Shown one piece after another: positions 13,215-63,567 of a stretch of 64,000 nt of DNA. Both the position numbers and the translations under genes were made by a program. The DNA is from an uncultured Acidimicrobiia bacterium (GTDB taxonomy: Bacteria > Actinomycetota > Acidimicrobiia > IMCC26256 > PALSA-555), in contig CAVSWW010000011.1 in assembly GCA_963731815.1 (NCBI GenBank), forward strand, positions 343,466 to 407,465. Reading direction: 5' to 3'. Position 1 is the stretch's first letter, and every line of letters starts with the position of its first letter. A model generated the notes under the pieces. That model ran no database searches. It saw nothing but the letters and a program-made list of their open reading frames with translations, and had not been told where the DNA came from.

Positions 13215-13266
13215 GATCGTTCCTCTCGTCCGGGCCGGTCGACGAACGGATCGACAGTAGTGACGA

Positions 13267-14193
13267 TCAGCCGGTGAAGCGCGGCTCCACCGCGATGCAC
13301 GGCGACACGAGCGGGTCGTAGGCGATGACGAGCACGCCGTTGCCTGCATCGCCGGAGTTGATCCCGGTCTCGAACAGCGTGCCGGCCGGGCCGAGGCTCG
13401 AGCCGCCACCGCCGCCACCACCACCGTCGGCGGCCCCCTCCGCGTTCGCGCCGCCGCCGCCACCGCCGGTCGCGCCGCCGCCGCCGCCACCACCACCGTC
13501 GATGGGCTCGCCGTCGCCACCCGCGCCGCCCTGGGAGCCGGTCGCGTCCTGGCCCGCGGGTGCGCCGGCGAAGCCGGCGCCGCCGATGCCACCGTTGCCA
13601 CCGCTCGACCCGCCGGACCCGCCCTCCTCGGAGGCCGCGGTGCCGTCGTCGCCGCCCTCGCCGCCGGCGCCGCCGTCGCCGCCACCGCCGAAGCCGCCGC
13701 CGCCGCCACCACCACCGGCGATGACGATCGGCGCGCCGGCGCGGTTGATCTGGGTCGCGCCGCCGCCGCCGCCGCCGATGCCGTCGTCGCCGTCGCCGCC
13801 GTCACCGCCGCCGTTGAAGCCACCCGCGTTGTTCTGGGTGCCTGCGGCCGGCGCGACCCCGTCGCGGACCGTTTCCTGCATCGGTCCCTCGCTTTCCGGG
13901 GTCTGCCCTGCGCCGCCGACGACCACCTCGAGCGTCTCGCCCGGCGTCACGGGCACCGTCGCGCTCGCCTTGGCACCGAAGGCGCCCTCGCCGTTCGACT
14001 CGCCGTCGCCGCCGGCAGCACCGACCGCGAAGACCTGGATCGAGCAGACGTTCTCGGGCACGACGTAGGACGCGGGTGCTCCCGTGTACGAGAAGGTCTC
14101 TTCGGACTGGGCCCCGGCCCCGCCGCTGGTCGCGGCCGCGAGGGCTGCGGTCGCCAGCCCGGCGACACCGATGACTGCAAGGAAACGTCGCAC
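13267..14193 (-). CDS. secreted glycine-rich domain protein, paralog 2
   Basis: Intact 308-aa ORF with a signal peptide (AVIGVAGLATAALAAATSGGAGA). It has the same architecture as paralog 1 (FSYTGAPASYVVPENVCSIQVFAVGAAGG..VTPGETLEVVVGGAG..GGFNGGG) and the C-terminus VLVIAYDP..AVEPRFTG. Confidence 0.8.
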   Translation of the reverse strand: MRRFLAVIGVAGLATAALAAATSGGAGAQSEETFSYTGAPASYVVPENVCSIQVFAVGAAGGDGESNGEGAFGAKASATVPVTPGETLEVVVGGAGQTPESEGPMQETVRDGVAPAAGTQNNAGGFNGGGDGGDGDDGIGGGGGGATQINRAGAPIVIAGGGGGGGGFGGGGDGGAGGEGGDDGTAASEEGGSGGSSGGNGGIGGAGFAGAPAGQDATGSQGGAGGDGEPIDGGGGGGGGATGGGGGGANAEGAADGGGGGGGGSSLGPAGTLFETGINSGDAGNGVLVIAYDPLVSPCIAVEPRFTG

Positions 14194-23061: not shown

Positions 23062-24336
23062 GTGGCGCCGCAACGGGAGTGGTTCGAGAAGGACTACTAC
23101 GCCGCGCTCGGGATCTCGTCGGACGCGAGCGACAAGGACGTCCAGAAGGCGTACCGGAAGCTCGCGAAGCAGTACCACCCCGACGCGAACGCGGGTGACG
23201 CGAACGCGGAGGAGCGCTTCAAGGACGTGTCGGCCGCGCACGACGTGCTCGGCGACCCGGAGAAGCGCAAGGAGTACGACCAGGTCCGCGAGATGGTCGC
23301 CAACGGCGCGGGGCCGGGAGGCTACGGCGGCTTCGGTCCCGGCTTCGAGAACGCGAACTTCCACTTCGACGACGGCGGCGGACTCGGCGACCTGTTCGGC
23401 AACCTCTTCGGCGGTGGTGCCGGCGGCGGTCGCGGGTTCGGTCGCCGCGGGCGTGGTCGCGGCGCGGGGCCGGTCGGCCCGGTGCGCGGCGAAGACCTCG
23501 AGACCGAGCTGCACCTCGACTTCCTCGACGCAGTCCATGGCATCACGACGACGGTCAACCTGACGTCCGACGCGGTGTGCTCGGTGTGCGGCGGGACCGG
23601 CGCCGAGCCCGGCACGTTCCCGGAGACGTGCACGACGTGCGGCGGCTCGGGCGCGGTCGCCGTCGACCAGGGACCGTTCTCGTTCTCGCAGGTGTGCCCC
23701 ACCTGCGGCGGGCGCGGCCAGATCGTCACGCACAAGTGCAAGAAGTGCCGATCGACCGGCGTCGAGCGGCGTCGGCGCGAGGTGAAGGTGCGCATCCCGG
23801 CCGGCGTGAAGGACGCGCAGCGGATCCGCGTGAAGGGCCGAGGCGGCGCGGGGCGCAACGGCGGTCCGCCGGGCGACCTGTTCGTCGTCGTCCACGTCGG
23901 CAAGCACCCGGTCTTCGGTCGAGCGCGGCGCGCCAACCTCACCGTCAACGTGCCGGTGACGTTCGCGGAGGCCGCGCTCGGGGCGCAGGTGAAGGTCCCG
24001 ACGCTCGAGGAGCCCGTGACCGTGAAGGTGCCCGCCGGAACCCAGCCCGGCACCACGGTGCGGGTGCGTGGCCGCGGCATCAAGCCCGCGAAGGGCGAGC
24101 CCGGCGACCTCATGGTGACGTTCGACGTGAAGGTGCCCGAGCGCCTCACCGCCGACGAGCGCGAAGCGGTCGAGTCGCTCGCCGAGAAGCTCAGCGAGAA
24201 CCCGCGCGACGGAGCTGGGGGTCTGACATGGCCACACGTGACGACCGGGAGCGAGCCCTCTACATCATCTCCGTGGCGGCGGAGCTGGCCGGCGTGCACG
24301 CGCAGACGCTGCGGATCTACGAGCGCAAGGGCCTGA
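23062..24336 (+). CDS. dnaJ: molecular chaperone DnaJ
   Basis: J-domain (DYYAALGISSDASDKDVQKAYRKLAKQYHPD), G/F region, and four CxxCxGxG zinc motifs. The last 35 codons overlap hspR and look out of frame. A 1-nt slip near 24212 would give ..ENPRDELGV with a stop at 24224-24226, just before the hspR ATG. Confidence 0.9.
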   Translation: MAPQREWFEKDYYAALGISSDASDKDVQKAYRKLAKQYHPDANAGDANAEERFKDVSAAHDVLGDPEKRKEYDQVREMVANGAGPGGYGGFGPGFENANFHFDDGGGLGDLFGNLFGGGAGGGRGFGRRGRGRGAGPVGPVRGEDLETELHLDFLDAVHGITTTVNLTSDAVCSVCGGTGAEPGTFPETCTTCGGSGAVAVDQGPFSFSQVCPTCGGRGQIVTHKCKKCRSTGVERRRREVKVRIPAGVKDAQRIRVKGRGGAGRNGGPPGDLFVVVHVGKHPVFGRARRANLTVNVPVTFAEAALGAQVKVPTLEEPVTVKVPAGTQPGTTVRVRGRGIKPAKGEPGDLMVTFDVKVPERLTADEREAVESLAEKLSENPRDGAGGLTWPHVTTGSEPSTSSPWRRSWPACTRRRCGSTSARA

Positions 24337-24791
24337 TCGAGCCGGAGCGCACCGAGGGCGGCAGCCGTCGCTACTCCGACAACGACATCGCGCTCCTCCG
24401 CCGGATCCAGGAGCTCACCAACGAAGGCGTGAGCCTCGTCGGCGTCCGCAAGGTCCTGGCGCTGGAGGCCGAGCTCGAGCGCGCCCGCGCCCGGATCGCC
24501 GAGCTCCAGCGGTCGCTCGACGCCGCCCACGACGAGCTCGCCCGGGCGGTCGAGGCGGCCCACCGCGAGCACCGCCGCGACCTCGTGCCGGTGCCGGCCC
24601 TCGACGGTCGTTCGCCGGAGGACCGGGTAGGGCACCGCCGCCGCCGGCGCCGGCCGCGATCATGCTCGAACCCACCTTCACCGGCTAGGCGCGAGCGGCC
24701 AGCTTCCCCGAGCGGAGCGACGCGAGGAAGTCGCCCAGCTCCGTCGCGGTCGGCGCGGTCCGCGGCTCGCGGATCGTCACCGTCACCGTGA
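24228..24791 (+). CDS. hspR: heat-shock transcriptional repressor HspR (MerR family); 3-prime end uncertain
   Basis: MATRDDRERALYIISVAAELAGVHAQTLRIYERKGLIEPERTEGGSRRYSDNDIALLRRIQELTNEGV is a MerR-type HTH. After about residue 125 the ORF turns Arg/Pro/Ser-rich and overlaps a convergent gene. The true stop is probably at 24630 or 24688 in another frame. Confidence 0.85.
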   Translation: MATRDDRERALYIISVAAELAGVHAQTLRIYERKGLIEPERTEGGSRRYSDNDIALLRRIQELTNEGVSLVGVRKVLALEAELERARARIAELQRSLDAAHDELARAVEAAHREHRRDLVPVPALDGRSPEDRVGHRRRRRRPRSCSNPPSPARRERPASPSGATRGSRPAPSRSARSAARGSSPSP

Positions 24792-25797
24792 GCGGACGTC
24801 CGTTCGCGGTCTGTCCGACGTACTGCTCGATGCGCGTCGGCGGGCGACGAGCTGGGATCACGGAACTCGAACCGGAATCCGGGAGCGTCCGCGATGCGCA
24901 TGCGCGTGGCCGCGGTCGAGCTGCACGTCGGGAAGCTTCTTCCGCGAGCGTCTCGGTGAGCTGGTCGGCGAGGCGTGTGCAGCGGCGGGATGTCGCGCTG
25001 CGTTCGCGCCGACGACGACGGACACGGTGTTGGTCTCGCTCGCCGGCGCTCCCGGCGACGCGATCGCGAACCTGATCGAGCTGCCGCGCTCGCGGCGCAG
25101 GACGCGCCATTCGTCGGGGTAGCGCAGCGCGAACTCCGCGTCGCCGTCGCGGTACGCGAGGGCGTGCTCGACCTGGGGCCGCTCGGCGGTCGAGCGTGAA
25201 GACGCCCGCGCCCGCCGCGGCGGCGGCGGCGATGAGCGCGGCACGCGGCCGCGACGGCGACGGTCACGATGCGCCGGCGCGCGAGCCCGGCACGCTCGCC
25301 TCGGGGACAGACGCGCGGGTCGTCGCCGAACGCCGCGACCATCGGGTCGACGGCGGAGGAGTGGGGTCGGCCTCGGTCACCCACCGCAGATCGTCGACCG
25401 CGTCGTCTTCGGGGAGCGGTTCGGGCTCGGGCAGCGGCTCGGCCTCGGCCTCCGTGGCGGGCACCGACCGCGAGGAGCGGCTGGGTGAGGACGACGGGCG
25501 GGAACGAGATCGACGGGAGGGTCGGCGCGTCGGGCTCGGGCGCGGGCGCGCGAGCAGGGGCTCGGTGAGGAGGAGCGGACTCGGGAAGAGCTGCGGGAGG
25601 GTCGGCGCCTCGGGCTCCCCCGGTCGCTGGATGTCGATGAGGTAGGGGGTCCAATGCAGGCCCTCCTCCTCGTCTTCACCGTCACGGACGCGCGCGGTCC
25701 AGTGCCAGCCGTCCCACCAGCGCTCACGGCCCGGGCACAGAGGGTCCGGCGCGAAGCGCGGCCCCCGGCTCCAGACCACATCAGCAACATCCGTCAC
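24685..25797 (-). pseudogene. DUF2510-domain / Pro-rich / single-TM protein, fragmented by several frame breaks
   Basis: The N-terminus [37 protein letters not shown] carries a DUF2510-like WxDP..RxWDGxxWT motif. Then come a Pro-rich linker, a TM region (IVTVAVAAA..), and a C-terminal domain split over three frames (EHALAYRDGDAEFALRYPDEWRV.. / TRMRIADAPGFRFEF / IEQYVGQTANGRPLTVTVTIREP..). I count at least 5 breaks. Confidence 0.5.
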
Positions 25798-25880
25798 AGG
25801 GCCGTCCAGCGTGGCATGTTGGGCGGAGGCGATTCCAGGGGCAGATCTCCTGGATTCATGAGCGCGATCCCGGGAATCGT

Positions 25881-25907
25881 GAAGTTGACAACCCCGTTGT
25901 CAACTTC
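25881..25907 (+). promoter_or_regulatory. HAIR-like palindromic operator upstream of clpB
   Basis: GAAGTTGACAAC-ccc-GTTGTCAACTTC has perfect 12-bp arms and contains TTGA-N11-TCAA, the same spacing as the dnaK site. It lies 52 nt upstream of the clpB ATG. Confidence 0.6.
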
Positions 25908-25958
25908 GACACTCTGCAGACCGAGGCAGCCACACAAGAGACGGGGAAGACCAGCCGC

Positions 25959-28634
25959 ATGGCACTCGATCCCAACAAGTTCACCCGCAAGACGGGCGAG
26001 GCCCTCCAGGCCGCGCAGGCGCTCGCCCGCGAGCGGAACCACACCCAGGTCACGCCCGAGCACCTGCTCGCGGCGCTTCTCGGGCAGCCCGAGAGCGTCG
26101 TGCTGCCGGTGCTCGAGCGCCTCGGTGTGGCACCCAAGACCCTCGTCGACCGGGTCGACGAGGCGATCGGCGCGCTGCCGCAGGTCTACGGCCAGACGAC
26201 CCAGACGGCGCAGCTCGCGCCCGACGCGTACCAGGTGCTCGAGGCGGCCGACCGCCAGCGCGAGGACCTCGGCGACGACTACCTCTCCACCGAGCACGTC
26301 CTGCTCGCGATGTCCGACGTCGCGGGCGGTGTCGGCGACCTCCTGCGCAGCAGTGGCGTCGCGCACGACGCGCTGCTCGGTGCGCTCAAGGAGGTGCGCG
26401 GCAGCCACCGCGTGACGAGCGAGAACCCCGAGGACCAGTACCAGGCGCTCGAGCGCTTCGGCCGCGACCTCACCGAGGAGGCGCGCAAGGGCAAGCTCGA
26501 CCCGGTCATCGGACGCGACGAGGAGATCCGGCGCGTCATCCAGGTGCTCTCGCGCCGCACGAAGAACAACCCCGTCCTCATCGGCGAGCCCGGCGTCGGC
26601 AAGACCGCGATCGCCGAGGGCCTGGCGCGCCGCATCGTCGAGGGCGACGTGCCCGAGTCGCTGCGCGACAAGCGGCTCATCTCGCTCGACATCAGCGCGA
26701 TGGTCGCGGGCTCGAAGTACCGCGGTGAGTTCGAGGACCGCATGAAGGCCGTCCTCAAGGAGATCACCGACTCCGACGGCGAGGTCATCACGTTCGTCGA
26801 CGAGCTGCACACGATCGTCGGCGCCGGTGGTGCCGAGGGCGCGGTCGACGCCGGCAACATGATCAAGCCGATGCTGGCGCGCGGCGAGCTGCGCATGATC
26901 GGCGCGACGACGCTCGACGAGTTCCGCAAGCACATCGAGAAGGACGCCGCGCTCGAGCGCCGCTTCCAGCAGGTGTTCGTGGGTGAGCCGTCGGTCGACG
27001 ACACGATCGCGATCCTCCGCGGGCTCAAGGAGCGCTACGAGGTGCACCACGGTGTCCGAATCCAGGACGCCGCGCTCGTCGCGGCCGCGGTGCTGTCGCA
27101 CCGCTACATCACGGGTCGCCAGCTGCCCGACAAGGCGATCGACCTCGTCGACGAGGCCGCGTCGCGCCTGCGGATCGAGATCGACTCGATGCCGTTCGAC
27201 ATCGACGTCGTCGAGCGGCGCATCCGCCAGCTGGAGATCGAGAAGGCCGCGCTCGCCAAGGAGACCGATGAGGTCTCGAAGGGCCGGCTCGAGGCGATCG
27301 ACGCCGAGCTCGCCGAGCTCGCGGAGGAGCGCGACGCGAAGGTCGCCCACTGGCAGAACGAGAAGGACGCGATCACCGAGATCCGGGCGCTGAAGGAGCA
27401 GCTCGAGAACGCGCGTACCGAGGCGGAGCGGGCCGAGCGCGAGGGGAACCTCGAGCAGGCCGCGCAGCTCCGCTACGGCACCATGCGCGAGCTCGAGACC
27501 GAGATCGAGGAGAAGACCGTCCGCCTCAACGAGCTCCAGGCCGACGAGCAGATGCTCAAGGAGGAGGTCGACGAGGAGGACGTCGCCGAGATCGTCGCCA
27601 AGTGGACCGGCATCCCCGTGAGCCGCCTCATGGAGGGCGAGATGGCCAAGCTCGTGCGCCTCGAGGAGGTGCTGCACGAGCGCGTCATCGGGCAGGACGA
27701 CGCGGTGAGCGCCGTCGCCAACGCGATCCGGCGGTCGCGCGCGGGCCTGTCCGACCCCAACCGGCCGATCGGCTCGTTCCTCTTCCTCGGGCCCACGGGC
27801 GTGGGCAAGACCGAGCTCGCGCGGACGCTGGCCGACTTCCTGTTCGACGACGAGCGGGCGATGGTCCGCATCGACATGTCGGAGTACATGGAGAAGCACT
27901 CGGTGTCGCGCCTCGTCGGCGCGCCCCCGGGCTACGTCGGGTACGACGAGGGCGGTCAGCTCACCGAAGCCGTCCGCCGTCGCCCGTACGCGGTCGTGCT
28001 GCTCGACGAGGTCGAGAAGGCACACCCCGACGTGTTCAACGTGCTGCTCCAGCTCATGGACGACGGTCGGCTGACCGACGGTCAGGGGCGCACGGTCGAC
28101 TTCACCAACGTCGTGCTGATCATGACGAGCAACCTCGGCACTCAGTCCTTGACGGGAGGCGATGGTGACGAGCGAGCGGTGATGGCCGCGGTGCACAGCC
28201 ACTTCAAGCCGGAGTTCCTGAACCGCATCGACGAGATCGTGGTGTTCCACCGGCTCGACGAGTCGCACATCGAGCGCATCGTCGAGATCCAGGTGGAGCA
28301 GCTGCGTCGACGTCTGGCCGACCGGAGCCTCGGGCTCGAGATCACCGAGGCCGCGCTCGCGCACCTGGCGAAGATCGGGTACGACCCCGACTTCGGGGCG
28401 CGCCCGCTCAAGCGGGTGCTCCAGAAGGAGGTCGCCGACCCGATCGCGCTCGGGCTGCTCAAGGGCGAGTACCACGACGGTGACGTCGTGGTCGTCGACG
28501 CCACGAGCGACGGCACGCTGGCGTTCAGCAGCGAAGTCGAGCGTCAGCGCCTGAGCGGACGCGCTCAGAGCCAGCGTCGGCGCAGGAGCTCGCGCGCGTC
28601 GCGAACCAGCCGGGGATGGCCGGCACGTAGCTGA
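25959..28634 (+). CDS. clpB: ATP-dependent chaperone ClpB
   Basis: Clp N-domain, two AAA+ modules ([21 protein letters not shown]), a long coiled-coil middle domain, intact 891-aa ORF. The last 30 residues are Arg/Ser-rich, so the exact stop is slightly uncertain. Confidence 0.97.
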
Positions 28635-30974
28635 CCGCGAGCTGGTGCGCGAGGACGGCCGCCGCGGTGGCCGCCTCGGGGACGCCGAACGCGGTGAGCA
28701 GGCCCGGCGAGCCCGATGGCCGACACCGCGGTGCCGCCCCCCGGGAGCGGGACGAGCGACGCGATCAGCGAGATGCCGATGTTGAGCGGCGAGCAGCGTC
28801 CAGAAGTTGACGCTCTCGCCGAACGCGGCGAGGCAGGCGAGCAGCGACGCGGCGTAGAAGCACTGCGCCGCGACGTTGCCGACGAGCAGCAGCGCCGAGC
28901 TTCTGCGGCGTCTTGACCGCTTCCCACACCGTGCGCGCCGCGCGCACGACCGCCGGGACGACGGCACGCCGGATGCCGCGGATGCTGAACACGACCGCGA
29001 TCGACGACCCCGATCACGAACACCGCGATCGAGCGCGATCAGGAGGATCTGGTCGGTGTTGATGTTCCCGAAGTCGATCGAGTCGGGCGCGAGCCAGAGC
29101 GCGAGGAACAGCAGCCCGACCTGCACGATGATCTCCGAGACGCTGCTGAGCACGCCGCCGGTCGGCGACGGCCGACGTGAGATCGAGGCCCTGGCGCTGG
29201 AGGAAGCGGATCTGCATCGCGGCGTCGGCGGCGACCGGCACCGCGAGGTTCGAGAACGACATCGACGACTGCAGCAGCATCGACGGCCAGAGCGCGACCC
29301 GGATCGGCACGGTGCCGAGGAACGCCACGGCGAACGCCGCGTCGGTCAGCATGCCGAGCACGAAGGCGAGCAGCACGTACTCCCAGCTCGCGTCGCGCAC
29401 CGAGTTCCAGAACTCGCCGGGTCGCCGATCCGGCTGAGCAGGAAGCCGACCGCGAACAGCGCGGCGACGGCCATGATGATCGAGCGCGGGTGCACTCGGT
29501 AGAGCTGGCGGAGCTCGGGCGGATCGTGGCTGCAGCGCCTGGGCGCCGCGCGTCGCGCAGCTGCTCGAGCGCTGCCGCCGTCGAGCGGCGTCGCGGGTCG
29601 CGCTCGTCATGACCGATGGCTGGAGGTAGCGGGAGCGCCTCGTGCAACGCGTCGTCGCCGATCGCGCGCGTCCGAGCGGCGGCGCAGCGCCCTCGTCGGC
29701 GACGACGAAGCACGCCGGCATGCCGAGCAGCTGTGCGACGTCGCGAGCGCATCTGGCCCGACGTCGGCGCTCGTCGACTGCCGCCTCGAACCCCACGATC
29801 GTCGGTCGGTTCCCGCTCGCCGATCACGAGGTGCCCCGCGTCGAGCGCGCCGTGCGCGATGCGCGCGGCGTGGAGCTGGTCGACCTCGCGCCAGACGCGA
29901 TCGCAGCAGCGCGTCGGTGAGCTTCGCCTTCGGTGCTAGGTCCCCGAGCGAGCGTCCCGACCGGGACCTCCTCGACGAGGACCGCGAGCCCGCGTGGCCG
30001 ATCCCGCGGCGACGATGCCCGGCGCGCGCGACGCCGCGGTCGCGGGCGAGCAGCTCGACATACGCCTCGTACTCGACCTGCTGCCGGCGGGTCGGGAAGA
30101 GCAGTGGGTGTCGTCTCGCGGTACGCGAGGTAGCGCCACAGCGCGAGCGATGAACTGCGCGTCGGCTTCGTCGCGGCCGATCGCGGTGACCTGGATCCGG
30201 CCCGTCGGTGGTGTCGCGCCGACGAACAGCGCTCGCCCGACCGGCTGGTCGGCACCGAGGTGGAGGTCGAGTGACCGCGACGCCGAGCCGCGCGAGCGCG
30301 CGGTGCACCTGCGCGACGGTCGGACGTCTGTCGGGCGTGCCGAACGCGAAGTGCACCGCGGCGGCGACGCCCCAGCCGAGGACGATCGCGCCGAGGAGGT
30401 CGGTCGGGAACGCCCGCCCGAGGTACATCGCGCTCGAGCGCGAGCAGGACCACGAGCACCTGGCCGACCCGGCGCACCGGTCGCGTCAGATGGGGGGAGG
30501 CGACGATGATCATCGCGACCGCGATCCCGACGCGCACCGTCGGGAAGCGCGGCGCGTCGTCGAAGTCGAAGACACCTCGAACGCGCCCGCCAGCGACGTA
30601 CGACCCCAGACGTACGCGAGGAGTCGCCCGAGCAGCCACGCCAGCGCGCCGGCGACGACGAGGTCGCGTGCGAGCTTCCAGCGGCGGACGAGGAGCACGG
30701 TCACCGCGAGGAGCGGACCGCCCAGAGCGCGAGCAGGTCGTAGAAGACGAGGAAGAACGTGTCGGCTGCCGACGGGAGGGTCTCGAACCACCGCACCACC
30801 GCACGCTCGGTCGCCGTCGGGCTGTCGGCGTGGAAGGCGAGCCCGACGAGGATCGCGGCGGCCACGACCACGCGGACGGCGTCGCTCGGCCGTCGACGGC
30901 TCGTGCCGCCCGAACGCACCCGGACGAGGCGCCGCCGGAGTCGCGTCGTACTGGCTGCGCATCCAGCGGATCAC
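28565..30974 (-). pseudogene. multidomain membrane protein (PAP2-like TM region + kinase-like middle + UPF0104/LPG-synthase-TM flippase-like C-terminus), heavily frame-broken
   Basis: Recognisable pieces lie in all three minus frames: MRSQYD..RRRPSDAVRVVVAAAILVGLAF; LLAVTVLLVRRWKLARDLVVAGALAWLLG; FDFDDAPRFPTVRVGIAVAMIIV; MYLGRAFPTDLLGAIVLGWGVAAAVHFAFG (PAP2-like); LALWRYLAYRE..LFPTRRQQVEYEAYVELLARDRGV; WEYVLLAFVLGMLTDAAFAVAFLG; NIGISLIASLVPLPGGGTAVSAIGLAG (UPF0104-like). I count at least 10 breaks. Confidence 0.55.
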
Positions 30975-30999
30975 GCAGGGTGTTCTATAGCCTCCGGCC

Positions 31000-32231
31000 G
31001 TGTCGCGAGCGGAGACAGACGTCGATGCGGTCCGCGCGACCGAACGATGGTTCGTGAGCCGGGGGCTGCCTCACTTCGTCTACCAGTTCCGCTCCTCACG
31101 CGACGTCTGGGTCGCGGTGGTGCCGATCGTCCTGCTGCTGTTCGTGATCGAGATCGGGGTGCTCGCACCCAACGAGGAGTACCCGGTGCTCGGCAGCATC
31201 GCGGCCGTGGTGGGCGGGGTCGTGGTGCTCGTCGCGATCTGGATGGTGACGAACAGGCTCCGGGGCCGGTCCTGGATCGCCCGGCCCGACCGGATCGGGC
31301 CCGTCGAGGTGCTGCTGTTCGTGCTCGGGCCCGCACTGATCCCGGTCGCGTTCGGTGGGCAGTGGCGGTCGGCGGTGGTCACCGCCGCCATCAACTTCGT
31401 CGTCCTCTCGCTCGCCTACCTCGAGCGGCGGTACGCCGTCGTGTCGCTCGCGCGGTGGACGCTGGCGCACCTCGCCAGACCGCATCCGCAGCGTCTCGGG
31501 CGTCATCCTTCGCGCGCTGCCCGCTGCTGCTGATCGTCGTCGTGCTCGTCTTCTACACGGTCGAGACGTGGCAGCTCGCGTACGAGCTGCGTTGGCCGGT
31601 CCTGCTGCTCGGCGCGGTGCTGTTCGTCGGCCTCGGACTCGTGTTCGCCGTGATCCGGGCGCCCGAGCAGATCGGTGAGATCGAGGCCGACGTCGACCCG
31701 TCGTCGATCCGTGACCTGGTCGAGGCGACGCCCTGCGAGCCGCTCGCCGCGCGCGGCGGCTCGTACTCGTCGCCACCGCTGTCGAAGAGCGAACGGCGCA
31801 ACGTGCGCATGGTGGTCGTCGTCAGCGAGGCCACCCTCGTCGCCATCGTCGGCGTGCGCGATGTTCCTCTTCTTCGTGGTGCTCGGCATGATCACGGTGC
31901 CGCCCTACCTCCAGGCGACGTGGATCGGTCAGCCGCCGAACGTCCTGTTCACGTTCGACCTGTTCGGCGAGCGAGATGGGGATGACGACCGAGCTCATCA
32001 AGGTCGCCGGCTTCGTGGCCTCGTTCTCGGCGCTGCAGTTCACCGTGTCGTTGCTCTCCGACCGCGGCGTACGAGGACGAGTTCCTGCAGGGCCTGCGCG
32101 CCGACCTGCGCCAGGCGTTCGCGGTCCGCGCCGTCTACCTCAAGACCGTCTTGGTCGGATCGAGCCCGGGTGAGGTACCCCGAAACCGCTGTGCGCGCAC
32201 GGATATCTCCACTACCCTGCACTCAACGTGA
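31000..32231 (+). pseudogene. polytopic membrane protein of unknown family, at least 4 frame breaks
   Basis: MSRAETDVDAVRATERWFVSRGLPHFVYQF.. plus TM segments continue through the frames of ORFs 31000, 30759..31985, 31675..32295 and 31976..32173 (LLLIVVVLVFYTVETWQLAYELRWPVLLLGAVLFVGLGLVF; MFLFFVVLGMITVPPYLQATWIG; TTELIKVAGFVASFSALQFTVSLLSD; AYEDEFLQGLRADLRQAF). Confidence 0.45.
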
Positions 32232-32295
32232 CTGCAGTTGCGTGCTCGCGGCCCCGCCCGAACGTCTTCGAGTCGGGGCCGCTCGTCGTGTGTGA

Positions 32296-33608
<1,313 letters not shown>

Positions 33609-33624
<16 letters not shown>

Positions 33625-34890
33625 TCGGCGGCGGCGGGCGCGAGCACGCGCTGGCGTGGGGCCTCGCCCGTGCCCGTCCGTCGACGAGGTCGTCGCCGCG
33701 CCGGGCAGTCCCGGGACCGAGGCGGTCGCGCGGAACGTGCCGGTCGACCCGAAGGACCCGGCGGCGGTCGCGTGCGCTGGCGGACGAGCTCGACGCCGAC
33801 CTGGTCGTCGTCGGACCGGAGGAGCCGCTCGTGCGGGGCGTCGTCGACGCCGTCCAGGCCGCGTGGTCGCCTCGCCTTCGGCCCGACGAGCGACGGTGCG
33901 CGCCTCGAGGGCTCGAAGCGGTGGATGAAGGAGCTCCTGGCCGGCGCCGGCGTGCCGACGGCCGCGCACGGGTCGTTCGAGGCCGGCGAGGAGGATGCGG
34001 CGTTCGCCTTCCTCGGCACGCTCGACGGCCTCTACGTCGTGAAGACCGACGGGCTCGCGGCGGGGAAGGGCGTCGTCGTGACCGAGTCGCTCGACGAGGC
34101 CGCCGCCGGCGGTGCGGAGCTACCTGTCGGGCGACGCGTTCGGCGACGCCGGTCGCACGCTCGTCATCGAAGAGGGGCTGCGGGGGCCGGAGCTCTCGTT
34201 GCTCGTGGTGTGCAACGGCGATCCGGACGGCGCGCGTGCCGCTCGCACCCGCGCAGGACTTCAAGCGCATCGGCGACGACGACGCCGGCCCGAACACCGG
34301 CGGGATGGGTGCGTACTCACCGGTCCCGATCGTCGACGACGAGATGGTCGAGCAGGTCATGCTCACCGTCGGTGCAGCCGACGCTGCGCACGCTGCTCGA
34401 CGAGGGAGTCGAGTACCGCGGCGTCCTCTACGCCGGGATCATGCTCACCGACGACGGCCCGAAGGTGCTCGAGTACAACGTGCGCTTCGGTGACCCGGAG
34501 TGCCAGGTCGTGGTGCCGCGCCTCGCCTCTGACCTCGGGGCGCTGTGTCGCGCCGTCCGCCGCAGGGGAGGCCCTGCCCGACATCGAGTTCCGCGACGAC
34601 GCGTGCGTCACCGTCGTGCTCGCGTGCGAGGGCTACCCGAACGCCCCCCGGACCGGCGACGTGATCGAGGGCATCGACGACCGCGTCCGCGCTCGACGAC
34701 GTGGTCGTGTTCCACGCCGGGCACGGCCCGTCGCGACGACGGTGCGCTCGTGACGGCCGGCGGGCGGGTGCTCGATGTGACGGCGACGCGGGCCGACGAT
34801 CGCCGACGCGCGACGGCAGGCCTACGAGGCGGCGTCGCGATCACGTGGCCGGGTGTGCAGCACCGCACCGACATCGCGGCGGCGGCCTGC
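33609..34890 (+). pseudogene. purD: phosphoribosylamine--glycine ligase, many frame breaks as assembled; 3-prime end approximate
   Basis: GTG 33609 opens [20 protein letters not shown]. Later fragments in all three frames include [152 protein letters not shown] and WPGVQHRTDIA. I count at least 8 breaks. Confidence 0.8.
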
Positions 34891-34942
34891 GGCGCGCGTG
34901 CGAGGCGCTACCACATGCTGGTCGGGCGGTGCTGTGCGCGGC

Positions 34943-35170
34943 TCAGGCTGGTCGAGCGTCCGCTTCTGGCCCGCGGCCCGCACGCCGGCCGCGACGAGCG
35001 CGCAGTCGATGCAGCGCGTCGGCATCCGCTTCCGCGTCGGCGGCACGAGGCACTGCGTGGCAGAAGAGATCACCGCAGTCCGCGACAGGTCCACTTCGGC
35101 GCGCTCGGTGAAGTGCTTCGCGCACGCACCGAGGAACGGTCTCGGCTTCTCGTCGCCACGATCCCCGCTC
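34943..35170 (-). CDS. possible small Cys-containing protein encoded antisense between purD and purB (boundaries unresolved)
   Basis: The minus-frame segment DEKPRPFLGACAKHFTERAEVDLSRTAVISSATQCLVPPTRKRMPTRCIDCALVAAGVRAAGQKRTLDQ has near-uniform G/C at third codon positions, unlike the other frames here. No in-frame start was found nearby and no family was recognised. Confidence 0.25.
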   Translation of the reverse strand, partial: ERGSWRREAETVPRCVREALHRARRSGPVADCGDLFCHAVPRAADAEADADALHRLRARRGRRAGRGPEADARPA

Positions 35171-37463: not shown

Positions 37464-37721
37464 GTGAGGTACGCGGCGCACGTCGACGTGACGCACCTGC
37501 CCGGGGTGCTCGACCCGCAGGGCGCGACCGTCCAGCGCGCGCTCCCGGCGCTCGGATACGACAACGTCTCGGACGTTTCCATCGGCAAGACCATCCGCCT
37601 CGTCGTCGACGCACCCGACGAGGGCGCGGCACGGGCGCAGGTCGAGGAGATGTGCGAGCGGCTCCTGGCCAACCCGGTGATCGAGGCCTACGAGATCTCG
37701 ATCAGCGAGCTCGGCCTCGGC
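37464..37721 (+). CDS. purS: FGAM synthase subunit PurS (no stop codon before purQ as assembled)
   Basis: MRYAAHVDVTHLPGVLDPQGATVQRALPALGYDNVSDVSIGKTIRLVVDAPDEGAARAQVEEMCERLLANPVIEAYEISI is typical PurS. It reads straight into purQ in the same frame. Confidence 0.75.
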
Positions 37722-38517
37722 ATGAGCCTCGACGTCGCGATCGTGCTGTTCCCGGGCACGAACTGCGAGCTCGACGTCGCGTACGCAGTGGACCGGCTCG
37801 GGGGAACACCGACGATCGTGTTCCACACCGAGCGCGACCTCGGCGGAGCCGACGCGGTGATCGTGCCGGGTGGGTTCGCGCACGGCGACTACCTGCGCAC
37901 CGGGGCGATCGCGCGCTTCTCGCCGATCATGGATGCCGTCGCCGCGTTCGCGCGTGACGGAGGCCCGGTGGTCGGCATCTGCAACGGGTTCCAGGTGCTC
38001 ACCGAGGCGCAGCTGCTGCCCGGCGCGCTGCAGAAGAACGCGGGGCTGCGCTTCCTGTGCACGACGGTCGAGGTCGAGATCGCGAGCACCCGTTCGGCGC
38101 TCACGAACAGCGCCGCCGTCGGCGACGTGCTGCGGCTCCCGATCAACCACTTCGAGGGCAACTACACGTGCGACGCCGCGACGCTCGAGCGCCTGCGCGA
38201 CGGCGACTGCGTCGTCGCCCGCTACGTCGACAACCCCAACGGCATCGCTCGACGACATCGCCGGCATCAGCAACGACGCCGGCAACGTCGTCGGGCTCAT
38301 GCCGCACCCCGAGCGCGCGGTCGAGGCGATCCTCGGCTCGGACGACGGCGCGGTGCTGCTGCGGTCGCTCCTCGCCGCGGCCGCGACGTCCGCGCCGATC
38401 GCGCCCAAGCCTCCACGGCGTCTCTGCACGCCGGCGCTGCAGGCGCTAGCGGGTGATCCCGGCCTGCTCGAGGACCTTGGCCGGGACGCCGAGCTCGCGC
38501 CAGGTCGCCGTACGTGA
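37722..38517 (+). CDS. purQ: FGAM synthase glutaminase subunit PurQ, one frame break; 3-prime end uncertain
   Basis: ATG 37722 opens [15 protein letters not shown], followed by [17 protein letters not shown] (catalytic Cys). The break lies near 38245, after which [11 protein letters not shown] is in the ORF 37870..38517 frame. The three frames stop at 38449, 38456 and 38517. Confidence 0.85.
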
Positions 38518-43809: not shown

Positions 43810-44008
43810 GCCGCCGCCCGAGGGAACGCGTGGGAGCTGGATGGCGGTCTGTTCATCGACGCGTCACCGACCCGCCGCTAGACCGACGCGCCGTCTTCCC
43901 GTATGGTCCCGGCACTGGAAGCGGGGAGTCTTCGATCCGTAGGGCGCGGGCGATCTGCACATCTCATCGTGGCTCCCGGTTCGCGGGAGCACGATCGCAG
44001 GAGGGGAA

Positions 44009-44580
44009 ATGCCGATCACACAGGTGGACATCGAGGGTGCCGAGAAGCTGCTCGAGGACCTCATGGGCAACCAGGAAGCAGCGGAGAGCTACTCGAAGGA
44101 CCCGGAAGGCTGGCTCAACGAGCACGGCTACGCCGACCTGAACCCCGAGGCGGTGGCGCAGTGCGGCGCGGCCTACGGCGGTGCGGGTGTGGCGACCGCG
44201 GGTGCCGGGGCCGCGAGCTCGGGCGTCGCGGGCGTGGTCGCGCAGCTCGACCCGGTCGTCTACAACAACTACTACGAGATCGACAACTCGATCACGAACA
44301 ACATCGAGAACCACGGGGACCTGGACTTCAACCAGCAGATCGGCGACGGGAACGTCAACGTCAACGACTCGACATCGACGGTGACATCCAGACCCAGACC
44401 GGTGACGGGATCCAGATCAACGACTCGGACATCGACAACTCGAACCTGTCCAGTGGTGACGACAACCAGCAGGCGATCGACCAGTCGACGAACACCGACG
44501 TCGACATCGACGTCGGCGCGCCGGAGGTGCCCACGAACGGCGCAACGAACGGCGAAGCCGAGGAGCTGGACCTGACCTAG
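44009..44580 (+). CDS. IniB-N-terminal-domain protein with Ala/Gly segment and Asn/Asp-rich repeat tail, paralog A, one frame break
   Basis: ATG 44009 follows GGAGGGGAA and opens MPITQVDIEGAEKLLEDLMGNQEAAESYSKDPEGWLNEHGYADLNPEAVAQC... This is followed by AYGGAGVATAGAGAASSGVAG, then VVYNNYYEIDNSITNNIENHGDLDFNQQIGDGNVNVNDS. The frame breaks at 44371/44372. The tail IDGDIQTQTGDGIQINDSDIDNSNLSSGDDNQQAIDQSTNTDVDIDV..EELDLT is in frame 1, with a stop at 44578-44580. Confidence 0.7.
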
Positions 44581-44638: not shown

Positions 44639-44726
44639 GTCGCAAGCTCGACCGTGTGCTGTAAGCGGGCGAGGGGGGTCGGGCTCAGTCCTTCGGACTG
44701 GGACGACCACACAGGAGGGAACAGCT

Positions 44727-45321
44727 ATGCCGATCACGCAGGTGGACATCGAGGGTGCCGAGCAGCTGCTCGAGGACCTCATGGGCAACCAGGCCGAGGC
44801 CGAGGCGTACGCCAAGGACCCGCAGGGTTGGATCACCGAGCACGGGTACGAGAACGTGAACCCGGAGGCGGTGGCGCAGTGCGGTGCCGCGTACGGCGGT
44901 GCCGGTGCGGCGTCGGCGGGTGCCGGTGCGGCGACCTCGGGTGTCGCGGGTGTCGTGGCCCAGCTCGATCCGGTCGTCTACAACAACTACTACGACGTCG
45001 ACAACTCGATCACGAACAACATCGAGAACCACGGGAACCTGGACTTCAACCAGCAGATCGGCGACGGGAACGTCAACGTCAACGACTCGAGACATCGACG
45101 GTGACATCCAGACCCAGACGGGCGACGGGATCCAGATCAACGACTCGACGATCGACGACTCGAACCTGTCCAGTGGTGACGACAACCAGCAGGCGATCGA
45201 CCAGTCGACGAACACCGATCTCGACATCGACGTCGACGGTGGGCTCGAGCCCGTTCGGACGCTCGAGGCCGACGCGCCCGACGCGGCGGCGCCACCCGAA
45301 GACCTCGACGACGTCAACTGA
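44727..45321 (+). CDS. IniB-N-terminal-domain protein, paralog B, one frame break at the homologous site
   Basis: About 85% identical to paralog A by eye, with the same N-terminus and repeats. The frame breaks at 45089-45091 (GACTCG-A-GACATCGAC). The tail DIDGDIQTQTGDGIQINDSTIDDSNLSSGDDNQQAIDQSTNTDLDIDV..PEDLDDVN is in frame 1, with a stop at 45319-45321. Confidence 0.7.
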
Positions 45322-55573: not shown

Positions 55574-55648
55574 TGGTGGCCGGGACCGGCGTCGATCCGG
55601 TGACCTCGCGCTTTTCGGCGCGCGCTCTGCCAACTGAGCTACCCGGCC
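55574..55648 (-). tRNA. tRNA-Phe (anticodon GAA) with a 6-nt anticodon loop as assembled
   Basis: The reverse complement is GGCCGGG TA GCTC AGTTGGCA GAGC G CGCGC CGAAAA GCGCG AGGTC ACCGG ATCGACG CCGGT CCCGGCC A CCA. It is 75 nt where 76 are expected, and U33 is missing from the loop (CGAAAA instead of CTGAAAA). The underlying bases are confirmed by the overlapping ORF-track translation (ERAPKSARS). Confidence 0.85.
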
Positions 55649-60351: not shown

Positions 60352-61493
60352 TCAGGCGGCGGCGAGCGCGTCGGCGAGGTCCGTCGCCGGACGACCGAGC
60401 GCCTCGGCGACCACCGCGTTCGTCACGTTGCCCGCCACCGTGTTGACGCCCGCGGCCAGCTCCGGATCGACCTCGGTCGCGCCGCTCACGCCCTTGGTCG
60501 CCAGCGCGAGCGCGTACGGCAGCGTGGCGTTGGTGAGCGCGTACGTCGACGTGTGCGGCACCGCCGCCGGGCATGTTGCCGACGCCGTAGTGGAGCACGC
60601 CGTGCAGCTCGTAGACGGGGTCGGCGTGCGTCGTCTCGCGGATCGTCTCGATGCAGCCACCCTGGTCGACGGCGACAGTCGACGATGACCGAGCCGGGCT
60701 TGCATCGACCGCACCATGTCCTCGGTGACGACGATCGGGGCGCGTCCGCCGGGCACGAGCACCGCGCCGACGACGAGGTCGGCCTCGGCGACGGCGCGCG
60801 CGACGGCGCCGCGGTTGCTCGCGAGCGTCACGATGCGCCCCTGGTGGATCTGGTCGACCAAGCGCAGACGGTCGAGGTTCTTGTCGAGCAGCGTGCACCT
60901 CGGCCTCCATGCCCTGCGCGATCCACGCCGAGTTCCACCCGACGTTGCCGGCGCCGAGCACGACGACGCGAGCCGGGCGCACGCCGGGGACGCCCCCGAG
61001 CAGGACGCCGCGGCCCCCGTGCTCGCGCTCGAGGAAGTGCGCGCCGATCTGGGTCGCCATGCGGCCCGCGACCTCGCTCATCGGCGCGAGCAGCGGCAGC
61101 GCGCCGTTCGTCGAGCTGCACCGTCTCGTACGCGACGCCCGGTCACCTTCTGCTCGAGCAGCGCGTCGGCGACCGCGGGGTACGCGGCGAGGTGCAGGTA
61201 GGTGAAGAGGACGAGCCCGGGCCGGAGGTGCCGCGAGCTCCTCGTCCTGCGGCTCCTTCACCTTCAGCACGATGTCGGCGCGCGCCCACACGTCGTCGGC
61301 GCCGTCGACGATCTCGGCGCCGGCGCGGCGGTAGTCGTCGTCGGTGATCGACGAGTCGGCGCCCGCGTCCGTGCTCGACGAGCACGTCGACGCCGTGCGC
61401 GCGCGAGCTCGTGCACGCCGTCGGGAGTGATCGCGACGCGGTGCTCGCCCTCCTTGACCTCGCGGGCACGCCGACCGTGCGCACTGCCGCCAT
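60352..61493 (-). pseudogene. ald: alanine dehydrogenase, about 9-10 frame breaks as assembled
   Basis: Fragments in all three minus frames, in order: MAAVRTVGVP / REVKEGEHRVAITPDGVHELARA / HGVDVLVEHG / AGADSSITDDDYRRAGAEIVDGADDVWARADIVLKVKEPQDEE / LRPGLVLFTYLHLAAYP / LLAPMSEVAGRMATQIGAHFLEREHGGRGVLLGGVPGV.PARVVVLGAGNVG / DQIHQGRIVTLASN / [24 protein letters not shown] / AVPHTSTYALTNATLPYALALA. Confidence 0.8.
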
Positions 61494-61507
61494 CTCGTCG
61501 CCTCTCG

Positions 61508-62950
61508 TCAGGTGCCGGAGCGCTGCCAGGCCCGGCCGGTCGTTCGCCCGCCGGCCGGTGCCATGGCGCTTCCACGCCTCGGTCAGGCACGGTGCGCAAC
61601 GTGGACTCGATGATGTCGAGCTCGGCGTCGCCGGCGATCAGCGGCGGTGAGAGCTGCACGACCGGGTCGCCACGGTCGTCGGTGCGGCAGATCAGGCCGG
61701 CCTCGTACAAGGCGGGGCGAGAGGAACCCGCGCAGCAGGTCTCGGACTCGCTCGTCGTGAACGTCGCCTTCGTGTCGCTGGTCCGCGACGAGCTCGAGCG
61801 CCCAGGAAGTAGCCGGCGCCGCGGACGTCGCCGACGATCGGGATGTCGCGCAGGCCCTCGAGCCGCTCGCGGAAGCCGGCCTCGTTGCGGCGCACGTTCT
61901 CGAGCACGTCCTCCTCGCTCGAACACTCGAGGTTGGCGAGCCCGACCGCGCAGCTCACCGGGTGGCCGCCGAACGTGATGCCGTGCAGGAACGAGCTGTG
62001 CCCCTCGAGGAACGGCTCGGCCAGGTGGTCGCGGCAGATCACCGCGCCGAGCGGCGAGTAGCCGCTGGTGAGGCCCTTCGCGCACGTGATCATGTCGGGC
62101 AGGTAGTCGTACCGCGTCCGCGCCGAACCACTCGCCGAGCCGGCCGAACGCGCAGATCACCTCGTCGGAGACGAGCAGCACGCCGTACTGGTCGCAGATC
62201 TCGCGGACGCGCTGGAAGTAGCCCTCGGGCGGCACGAAGCAGCCGCCCGCGTTCTGCACCGGCTCGAGGTACACCGCGGCGACCGTCTCGGGCCCCTCCG
62301 CAGAGGATCGCCTCCTCGATCGCGTCGGTCACCGCGAGCATGAACGCCTTCGTCGTCCTCGCCCAGCGGGTGGCGGTAGCGGTTCGTGTTCATCGACGTG
62401 CGACGCGCCGGGCGTCAGCGGCTCGAACGGCGTCCGCAGCGCGGGGACGCCGGTGATCGCGAGCGCACCGAGCGTGGTGCCGTGGTACGCGGTCTCGCGC
62501 GCGATCACCTTGTAGCGCTGACCCTCGCCGCGCACGCGGAGGTACTGGCGCGCGAGCTTCCACGCCGACTCGACCGCTTCGGAGCCGCCGGTGGTGAAGA
62601 AGACGCGGTTGAGGTCGCCGGGCGCGAGCTCGGCGAGGCGCGCCGCGAGCTCGATCGCCGGCGGGTGCGCGTACTCCAGATCGGGAAGTACTCGAGCGTC
62701 TCGGCCTGCTCGCGCCGCGGCCTCGCGCGAGCTCGCGCCGACCGTGACCGAGCTGCACGGTGAAGAGCCCCGACAGGCCGTCGAGGTAGCGCTTGCCGTT
62801 CGCGTCCCAGACGTAGCAGCCCTCGCCGCGCGCGATGATCGGGACGTCGCGCCCGCCTGCGTACGCGCCGAGGCGGCTGAAGTGCATCCAGAGGTGACGG
62901 CGCGCCAGCTCCTCGAGCGTCGACGTCGTGGACGTGAGCGCTTGCGTCAC
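61508..62950 (-). pseudogene. class-III (omega) PLP aminotransferase, many frame breaks; 3-prime end uncertain
   Basis: GTG 62950 opens MTQALTSTTSTLEELARRHLWMHFSRLG..PIIARGEGCYVWDANGKRYLDGLSGLFTVQLGHGR. Later fragments are FFTTGGSEAVESAWKLARQY, KVIARETAYHGTTLGALAITG, VYLEPVQNAGGCFVPPEGYFQRVREICDQYGVLLVSDEVICAFGRLG, ITCAKGLTSGYSPLGAV, HGITFGGHPVSCAVGLANL and LICRTDDRGDPVVQLSPPLI. Candidate stops lie at 61508 or 61583. Confidence 0.75.
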
Positions 62951-63425
62951 TCATCGGGTACCCCATGCGTAGGTCTGCTTGTACAGACGGAGATAGGTGA
63001 AGGTCTCGGTCGCTGCGCACACCGGGGATGGCGCGGATCTTGTCGTTGAGCAGCGCGAGGAGGTGGTCGTCGTCCTCGCACACGACTTCGAGCAGCAGGT
63101 CGAACGAGCCGCCCACGATGACCACGTAGTCGACCTCGGGGATCGACGAGATCGTGTCGGCCGCGGCCGCGGAGGTCGCCCTCGACGCTCAGCCCGACCA
63201 TCGCCATGCGCCGGAACCCGAGCGTCAGCGGGTCGGTGACCGCGACGATCTGGGTGACGCCCGACTCGATGAGCCGCTGCACCCGCTGACGCACGGCGGC
63301 CTCGCGAGAGGCCGACCCGCGTGCGCGAGGCGCGTGTACGGCAGCCGACCGTCCTGCTGGAGCGCCTCGATGAGCGCCTTGTCGGTCTCGTCGAGGACGA
63401 CGGGGTCGGACGCCGACCGGGCCAT
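62951..63425 (-). pseudogene. Lrp/AsnC-family transcriptional regulator, about 3-4 frame breaks
   Basis: ATG 63425 opens MARSASDPVVLDETDKALIEALQQDGRLPYTRLA. It continues as AVGLSEAAVRQRVQRLIESGVTQIVAVTDPLTLGFRRMAMVGLSVEGDL / YVVIVGGSFDLLLEVVCEDDDHLLALLNDKIRAIPGV / TETFTYLRLYKQTYAWGTR in other frames. The stop abuts the aminotransferase start. Confidence 0.75.
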
Positions 63426-63567
63426 GCCCCGACGATGGCACGAGCGCGGGACCGCGCGCAAGGGATTCCGTGGTCTTTACCGCCGAGACACGTGGATTCC
63501 ACGGTTCGGGCGGGCCTGAACTGCGGATCACGTCGTAGCCGTGTGCCGGCCCTCCTAGGATGCCCTC

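Follow-up and report, generated by a model that had tools for sequence, protein, structure and literature searches.

The window analyzed here, a stretch of 64,000 nucleotides from an uncultured Acidimicrobiia bacterium, contains four adjacent genes whose reading frames are each broken several times (Table 1). The first encodes a flippase-like protein with a weak PAP2-like N terminus, a variable middle, and a C-terminal LPG_synthase_TM ("flippase-like") domain; its frame-corrected translation matches PF03706 in Pfam (E = 7e-18), with the PAP2 match falling below the Pfam cut-off. Orthologues of this gene are present as intact single ORFs of 773 to 791 aa in many Acidimicrobiia contigs. The second gene is its conserved neighbor and encodes a membrane protein for which no Pfam family was found on the corrected translation. 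Both genes are missing from one relative, L001. They are followed by purA, the corrected translation of which covers positions 1 to 416 of the 416 positions of PF00709 (E = 4e-173), and by purD, for which GARS_N, GARS_A, and GARS_C were all matched after correction. Intact reference orthologues were taken from three related Acidimicrobiia contigs that are independent of one another, L081, L082 (an Illumina megahit contig), and L083. In these contigs all four genes are intact single ORFs in identical order, the membrane protein, for example, measuring 389, 391, and 388 aa, respectively.

Table 1. Frame-broken features of the window (positions numbered from its first nucleotide)
Feature	Coordinates	Strand	Frame breaks
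Second hot zone, poorly conserved hypothetical protein (~313–341 aa in relatives)	24629..25797	-	10–13
Left edge of the main zone	28530	+	Extra base six codons ahead of the clpB stop; remainder of clpB (25959–28529) without a break
Flippase-like gene, ~790-aa membrane protein	28568..30971	-	26–29
Membrane gene, ~390-aa multi-pass protein	31000..32165	+	5 single-base insertions, at about 31477, 31520, 31851–31857, 31972, 32065–32069
purA, adenylosuccinate synthetase, 430 aa	32302..33594	+	3 single-base insertions, at about 33061–33064, 33188–33191, 33482–33486
purD, phosphoribosylamine-glycine ligase, ~425 aa	33609..34887	+	11 (9 single-base insertions, 2 single-base deletions): 33674, 33773, 33861, 34105, 34235, 34368, 34555, 34682, 34719, 34789, 34840
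Third hot zone: alanine dehydrogenase, AsnC/Lrp regulator, class-III aminotransferase	60353..63426	-	About 20 frame switches

Number and Distribution of the Frame Breaks

Breaks were counted mainly with a purpose-written frameshift-aware protein-to-DNA aligner, since a tblastn search with ORFs from L001 had been dominated by low-complexity matches in the wrong frames and was only roughly informative. Alignment to the intact orthologues from L081, L082, and L083 places 45 to 48 frame breaks at 28568–34887. The initial annotation, which had reported at least 30 breaks between 28565 and 35000, was thus right about their existence and location, but its count was too low and its spacing of one break every 150 to 250 bp too wide, as the mean spacing is ~135 bp and the median ~100 bp. 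The purD breaks fall at the same positions whether L081 or L082 serves as reference, and tblastn and tblastx comparisons confine the purA frame changes to the window sequence. When the sequence was segmented by codon usage with a Viterbi model trained on long ORFs of the window itself, 31 frame switches appeared in 28521–34900. These are 31 of 80 such events window-wide, inside 10% of the window (P = 9e-12). By the same alignment test, the zone has 7.3 to 7.8 breaks/kb compared with 0.62/kb in nine neighboring genes, a ~12-fold difference (binomial P ~ 1e-13). The zone is itself uneven, with 31 events at 28.53–30.45 kb, none at 32.07–33.06 kb, and 16 at 33.06–34.89 kb, and density peaks at one break per ~36 bp in the stretch from 29.5 to 30.3 kb.

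Two further zones of the window are broken in a similar way, single-base insertions predominating in all three. The similarly dense breakage that had been noted at 24.7–25.8 kb is borne out by the 10 to 13 breaks of the second hot zone, and in the third the alanine dehydrogenase gene alone contains 10 breaks, nine insertions and one deletion. Outside the three patches, the "cold" parts of the window have about 0.4 to 0.7 breaks/kb of the same insertion-biased type, a rate exceeded more than 10-fold in the patches. Single breaks occur in purB, purC, purQ, dnaJ, and merR, and every one is an insertion. Damage to dnaB, the pur genes, and a tRNA, as originally described, was also found: the N- and C-terminal domains of dnaB lie in different frames, and in the tRNA-Phe(GAA) gene the anticodon loop is only 6 nt long and U33 is missing, which corresponds to a one-base deletion and hence not to the dominant error type. 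The genes previously listed as intact are indeed so, with no breaks in dnaK and grpE, none or one in clpB, and a single frame segment each in the ABC1 kinase, purF, and two-component genes. Exact matches to the clpB and dnaK products, sought as a route to another assembly of this strain, were not on record.

Character of the Breaks

The breaks are strongly biased toward insertions, which make up 40 of 45 (~89%; five deletions; sign test, P = 8e-8) and in the zone are almost all one base long. Consistent with this bias, "+1" frame switches outnumber "+2" switches window-wide by 61 to 19 in the Viterbi segmentation. All four bases are inserted, in proportions that follow genome composition (G, 15; C, 16; A, 6; T, 6). 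Homopolymers are depleted at the break sites, 20 of 47 having no run of at least two identical bases within 3 nt (background, 27%) and only four lying near a run of three. Homopolymer-length error was rejected as the mechanism. A search of the 47 sites for a slippery heptamer or homopolymer tract revealed no shared slippery motif. GCG is enriched near the sites (33 of 47 versus 19.4 expected), and the motif search as a whole gave only a moderate GCG/CGC enrichment, with gap placement uncertain by 1 to 3 nt at 80 to 89% identity. Some sites are only 13 to 40 nt apart.

The Corrected Genes Evolve as Intact Genes Do

Once corrected, the genes align end to end with their orthologues at 79 to 93% identity, with no in-frame stops in about 2,000 codons. 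At the two ends of this range, the flippase-like translation is 79 to 85% identical to those of L081, L082, and L083, and purA is 93% identical to its L081 and L082 orthologues. The dN/dS ratios of the window against the references resemble those between the references: 0.16/0.26 versus 0.22 for the flippase-like gene, 0.19/0.18 versus 0.18 for the membrane gene, 0.10/0.11 versus 0.08 for purA, and 0.16/0.18 versus 0.17 for purD. On the window branch, dN is not above that of the intact relatives. Lineage-specific substitutions are fewer in the window than in the intact L083 (69 versus 90 in the flippase-like gene, 16 versus 32 in the membrane gene, and 18 versus 36 in purA), with equal third-codon-position bias in the two, though the power of these tests to rule out a minor contribution of substitution errors, up to about 1%, is low. 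At the level of sequence evolution, these comparisons show that the organism carries four normal genes under selection here, the flippase-like gene, the membrane protein gene, purA, and purD.

These data bear directly on genuine regional gene decay, in which the four genes would be pseudogenes with real frameshifts in this lineage. The deposited sequence does contain the breaks, in strong clusters, and, as L001 lacks both, at least one relative can dispense with the flippase-like and membrane genes. However, the lack of stops, the unchanged dN/dS, which gives no sign of relaxed selection, and the presence of fewer lineage-specific substitutions than in the closest intact relative despite 45 to 48 indels together argue that this is not gene decay. 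Bacterial pseudogenes have a known deletion bias, whereas 89% of the breaks here are insertions. Moreover, the same signature appears in dnaB and in unrelated genes of the two other zones, and the tRNA-Phe gene carries its one-base deletion. Decay is thus highly unlikely.

Origin of the Breaks and Their Patchiness

The absence of stops after correction, the unchanged dN/dS, the lack of a substitution excess, the uniform insertion type, and the involvement of dnaB all favor the initial proposal of consensus error over pseudogenization. From these evolution-based tests we infer, with a probability of about 0.93, that the breaks arose as errors of the deposited consensus and do not exist in the organism's DNA. 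The assembly would have added roughly one spurious base, of any kind and mostly outside homopolymers, per 135 nt. The insertion-biased pattern runs through the whole window and is steeply raised in the three patches. Several observations place such errors in context. Among related genomes, the nearest are soil MAGs built from Nanopore reads alone, and they contain isolated single-base insertions of this kind. Such insertions occur in purA and dnaK of the Nanopore-only relatives L001, L004, and L012, which were assembled with Flye and given one round of Medaka polishing (PMC12313526); the short-read MAG L006 shows none. Long-read metagenomics has been described as suffering from indel-driven frameshifts and from regions that stay "unpolishable" where coverage is low or the local population heterogeneous (bioRxiv 10.1101/2021.08.23.457338). 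Counting against consensus error, the profile is unlike that of textbook nanopore sequence, with its homopolymer-length errors that are often deletions. A literature search on whether partial-order-alignment consensus favors insertions when coverage is low found nothing usable.

Why the errors should be concentrated in patches is a separate question, for which extreme GC content and misassembly had been put forward. On such a reading, the patches would be extreme-GC segments or a misassembled join at which the chemistry or the assembler failed. Across 1-kb bins, break count does rise weakly with GC (rho = 0.32, P = 0.01), and the densest 800 bp (29.5–30.3 kb) are 74.5% GC. Windowed GC nevertheless speaks against the first possibility, as the zone, at 71.9% GC, barely differs from the window (71.4%), and the bins richest in GC (79.6% at 50–51 kb, 77.4% at 41–42 kb, and 76.7% at 13–14 kb) contain zero to two breaks each. 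Against misassembly, the genes are collinear with those of L083 over 23.4–34.1 kb and with those of L081/L082 over 20–41 kb, and order and orientation across both zone edges agree with L083 and L082. A search of the zone edges for repeats or inverted repeats found none. We therefore consider both variants very improbable. A short-read-polished assembly with unpolished gaps, as initially suggested, is likewise doubtful, since the cold parts retain breaks of the same type.

The breaks instead follow the variability of the locus among relatives. Breaks are denser where two intact relatives diverge more from each other locally (rho = 0.52 to 0.55, P = 2e-4 to 0.01), which suggests that the errors arise at the consensus step and not from chemistry alone. 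The hot zone begins exactly at the 3' end of clpB, where relatives differ in gene content. The purB–purQ stretch has only three breaks in 3.2 kb although relatives diverge there as much as in purD, and conservation thus accounts for only part of the pattern. Because break density tracks variability among relatives and the zone starts at the clpB 3' end, the patches most likely reflect poor read support at the consensus step. Either few reads of this population would have covered them, or reads of co-occurring relatives, differing in sequence and gene content, would have been piled up together. Low local read support, also among the causes initially suggested, would fit the observed patchiness.

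Two readings would make the extra bases real. That variable segments in a living Acidimicrobiia population underwent a very recent local burst of +1 insertions, too young for stops or substitutions to have followed, or that the genes are expressed despite their breaks, strikes us as exceedingly improbable. That real frameshifts are decoded anyway, by programmed ribosomal frameshifting, transcriptional slippage, or RNA editing, is next to impossible: the coding signal is fully kept on either side of each break, but there are 45 to 48 closely spaced sites with neither homopolymers nor shared slippery motifs, A, C, G, and T all occur among the extra bases, and the orthologues of close relatives need no correction.

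Our verdict is that the region is an artefact that calls for re-polishing rather than a biological explanation; its biological interest is low, and it matters for annotation. Taken at face value, the contig would yield dozens of fragment "genes" and an organism falsely lacking purA, purD, dnaB, alanine dehydrogenase, and a tRNA-Phe, and this would bias pseudogene counts, estimates of completeness, and the reconstruction of metabolism. The near-pure single-base insertions outside homopolymers, and an error density that follows segment variability among related populations, may be useful to those who polish long-read metagenomes.

Comparison with Known Systems

The closest parallel is with long-read consensus frameshifts, the targets of proovframe, Medaka, and Polypolish. 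There too, 1-nt indels cut genes into short ORFs, the protein is recoverable by frameshift-aware alignment, and related Nanopore-only MAGs show similar isolated single-base insertions; we count as a further shared trait that severity is set by coverage and local population heterogeneity. The errors that remain in long-read sequence are typically presented as errors in homopolymer length, as for Polypolish. The window events differ in avoiding homopolymers, in being almost all insertions, and in their enrichment near GCG, and the more than 10-fold patchiness inside one contig is more pronounced than a uniform residual error rate would give. The frameshift pseudogenes of reductive genome evolution in bacteria likewise involve several adjacent frameshifted genes. 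In contrast to these, stops, relaxed selection, and deletion bias are all absent here, dnaB is affected in the same manner, and a tRNA carries a one-base deletion. Finally, in rescue by transcriptional slippage or programmed frameshifting, coding potential also resumes in another frame past each break, but those processes need homopolymeric or slippery sites, one or a few per gene, whereas here up to 29 breaks occur in a gene without such motifs.

Frame Breaks in a Conserved Gene Cluster

The gene order at 20.6 to 38.4 kb, with gene identities checked by Pfam search on frame-corrected translations, recurs with every gene as one intact ORF on three independent contigs from related Acidimicrobiia: L081 (a 253-kb contig of GCA_964501785.1), L082 (a megahit contig from ENA) and L083 (a JGI contig with 89% DNA identity, collinear with window positions 23402 to 34089). 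The closest relatives of the window in public collections are uncultured Acidimicrobiia or Actinomycetota from soil metagenomes. At a GC content of 71.4% for the whole window, ORF lists alone are uninformative, since long ORFs arise in all frames, and breaks were counted in two independent ways: by reference-free Viterbi segmentation on codon usage, trained on long ORFs of the window itself, and by reference-guided, frameshift-aware protein-to-DNA alignment.

The segmentation returned 31 frame switches at 28521 to 34900 and 80 frameshift-like switches across the whole window. The alignments returned 45 to 48 breaks in the 6142 coding nt of the four genes of hot zone 1, at positions consistent from one reference to another, compared with 6 in 9636 nt of nine neighbors (dnaK, grpE, dnaJ, merR, clpB, purB, purC, purS and purQ), a 12-fold contrast in the same test (P ~ 1e-13). 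Both counts bear out the dense breaks that the initial annotation had noted in these four genes, and its figure of at least 30 was conservative. When translated against five relatives by tblastx, the window changes frame while the subject keeps one. Within the zone, 31 events lie at 28.53 to 30.45 kb, peaking at one per ~36 bp at 29.5 to 30.3 kb; 32.07 to 33.06 kb holds none and 33.06 to 34.89 kb holds 16.

Features of the window, with breaks from frameshift-aware alignment to intact orthologs and substitution measures for the genes of hot zone 1
Feature	Coordinates	Strand	Breaks	dN/dS, window vs. L082 / L081	dN/dS, L082 vs. L081	Unique substitutions, window / L083	Description
dnaB	4635-5947	+					
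Repeat-rich gene	12350-14170	-					Long GCC/GCCGCC-type repeats; glycine-rich low-complexity protein; among the GC-richest parts, no frameshift hot spot
dnaK, grpE, dnaJ, merR	from 20.6 kb	+					First genes of the order
Hot zone 2	24629-25797	-					
Hypothetical gene	24.69-25.80 kb	-					Between merR and clpB
clpB	25959-28551						
clpB-purA junction	28552-32301						
Hot zone 1	28568-34887						
Flippase-like gene	28568-30971	-	26-29	0.16 / 0.26	0.22	69 / 90	~790-aa membrane protein; C-terminal LPG_synthase_TM "flippase-like" domain (PF03706)
Membrane gene	31000-32165		5	0.19 / 0.18	0.18	16 / 32	~390 aa; without Pfam family
purA	32302-33594		3	0.10 / 0.11	0.08	18 / 36	Pfam model positions 1-416 of 416 covered (frame-corrected)
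purD	33609-34887		11	0.16 / 0.18	0.17		All three GARS domains by Pfam (frame-corrected)
purB, purC, purS, purQ	after purD, to 38.4 kb						
Joined purS-purQ ORF	37464-38456	+					
Tandem paralogs	44007-44575, 44725-45316	+					Adjacent, from tandem duplication; 300-nt and 148-nt stretches 86% and 94% identical; one frame switch in each
tRNA-Phe(GAA)	55577-55648	-					In Glu-Asp-Phe cluster
Hot zone 3	60353-63426	-					Alanine dehydrogenase, AsnC/Lrp regulator, class-III aminotransferase

In the window purS and purQ form a single ORF because the purS stop region falls short of those of L081 and L082 by ~8 to 11 nt; the joined ORF could be a natural fusion or a further consensus error.

Insertions in Genes under Normal Constraint

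We consider hot zone 1 to be a consensus-sequence artifact, with a probability of roughly 0.93. Real decay at 45 to 48 indels in 6 kb should have brought many unconstrained substitutions and stops, and neither is present. The four frame-corrected genes contain zero in-frame stops in ~2000 codons, and in each the dN/dS of the window against intact orthologs matches that of L082 against L081. When substitutions unique to each sequence were counted in four-way codon columns, the closest intact relative, L083, exceeded the window, with equal third-position bias. The preference of the initial annotation for consensus error over pseudogenization is thus upheld, and the pattern is that of a nearly pure insertion process overlying normally evolving genes. 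The biological interest of the zone is low; frame-corrected translations should serve as the basis for annotating its four genes, and the contig needs re-polishing.

The type of change was read from DNA alignments to L081, L082 and L083. Insertions in the window account for 40 of 45 breaks (38 single-base and 2 two-base; P = 8e-8), the other five being single-base deletions. The inserted bases (G15, C16, A6, T6) follow the composition of the genome, and an identical base adjoins only about one-quarter of them. Homopolymers are underrepresented at break sites relative to random positions of the zone, with no run of at least two within 3 nt at 20 of 47 sites versus 27% of background positions. 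GCG lies nearby at 33 of 47 sites versus 19.4 expected (P = 6e-5 before correction for 52 tests), which is only a lead, as gap placement at such identity can be off by a few bases.

The same kind of change is found elsewhere in the window. Frame switches of the "+1" type outnumber "+2" by 61 to 19, whereas neither type dominates at true gene boundaries (9 vs. 14). Isolated breaks in purB, purC, purQ, dnaJ, merR and the clpB end are single-base insertions throughout. Hot zone 3 carries ~20 frame switches; its alanine dehydrogenase gene, free of stops and 85 to 89% identical to five intact homologs, has 10 breaks relative to them (nine single-base insertions and one deletion). In dnaB, a switch near 4920 places the DnaB N-terminal and DnaB_C domains in different frames. 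The tRNA-Phe(GAA) has a 6-nt anticodon loop (C-GAAAA) without U33, in this case a one-base deletion, and is given a 2-base anticodon by ARAGORN; it scores 50.4 bits in a sensitive Rfam search and is absent from the whole-window gathering run. Such damage in indispensable genes suggests a fault in the sequence record, not in the organism.

In hot zone 2, a poorly conserved hypothetical gene carries 10 to 13 breaks, 2-nt deletions among them, and when set against L083 it also has insertions of 28, 58 and 68 nt. In contrast to hot zone 1, nonsynonymous change is raised on the window branch (dN 0.23 to either relative vs. 0.08 between relatives), which may reflect misalignment or real divergence.

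Placement of the Patches

Break density tracks how far the window and L083 diverge locally (rho 0.61 to 0.84) and, more tellingly, how far two intact relatives do so with the window left out (rho 0.52 to 0.55, P = 2e-4 to 0.01). Hot zone 1 begins exactly at the clpB 3′ end, a site of gene-content differences among relatives: at the clpB-purA junction the related MAG L001 passes directly from clpB to purA, lacking both the flippase-like gene and the membrane gene; L082 carries an additional CN-hydrolase gene after clpB, and L081 an additional SpaA-domain gene before purA. The other flank of clpB, likewise variable, is hot zone 2. From the divergence correlation and these variable flanks we infer that poor or heterogeneous read support may underlie the patches: where co-occurring populations differ, the consensus step would have been short of reads or supplied with heterogeneous ones, and the highly conserved clpB and dnaK would have been well supported. 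The fit is imperfect, as purB to purQ match purD in divergence among relatives but show only 3 breaks in 3.2 kb.

Misassembly, raised as an option in the initial annotation, is unlikely to lie behind the patches, since gene order and orientation match the relatives over both edges of hot zone 1 and a search for repeats flanking it found none. Extreme GC, another option raised there, fails as a cause on windowed GC: hot zone 1 stands at 71.9%, close to the window value, the GC-richest kilobases (79.6%, 77.4% and 76.7%) contain 0 to 2 breaks each, and break count correlates weakly with GC (rho 0.32).

Comparison with Long-Read Metagenome Errors

Nanopore consensus error is usually described as error in homopolymer length, from which the profile in the window differs, and a raw error profile dominated by insertions has been reported for PacBio continuous long reads; we therefore assign no platform. 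Among genomes of the species-representative collection, the closest is L001 (clpB 85% identical to the window), a Microflora Danica MAG; the MAGs of that project derive from Nanopore reads alone, with assembly by Flye and a single round of Medaka polishing (PMC12313526). In three of them, purA or dnaK is broken by isolated single-base insertions, one or two per MAG (L001 at 3632 and 13929, L004 at 15493, L012 at 6862 and 13146), whereas the short-read MAG L006 has none in the purA and dnaK comparison; in this small sample, the Nanopore-only relatives thus show the error type of the window at much lower density. In long-read metagenomes, low coverage or localized intrapopulation heterogeneity produces "unpolishable" regions (bioRxiv 10.1101/2021.08.23.457338), the same situation as that proposed here for the patches of the window.
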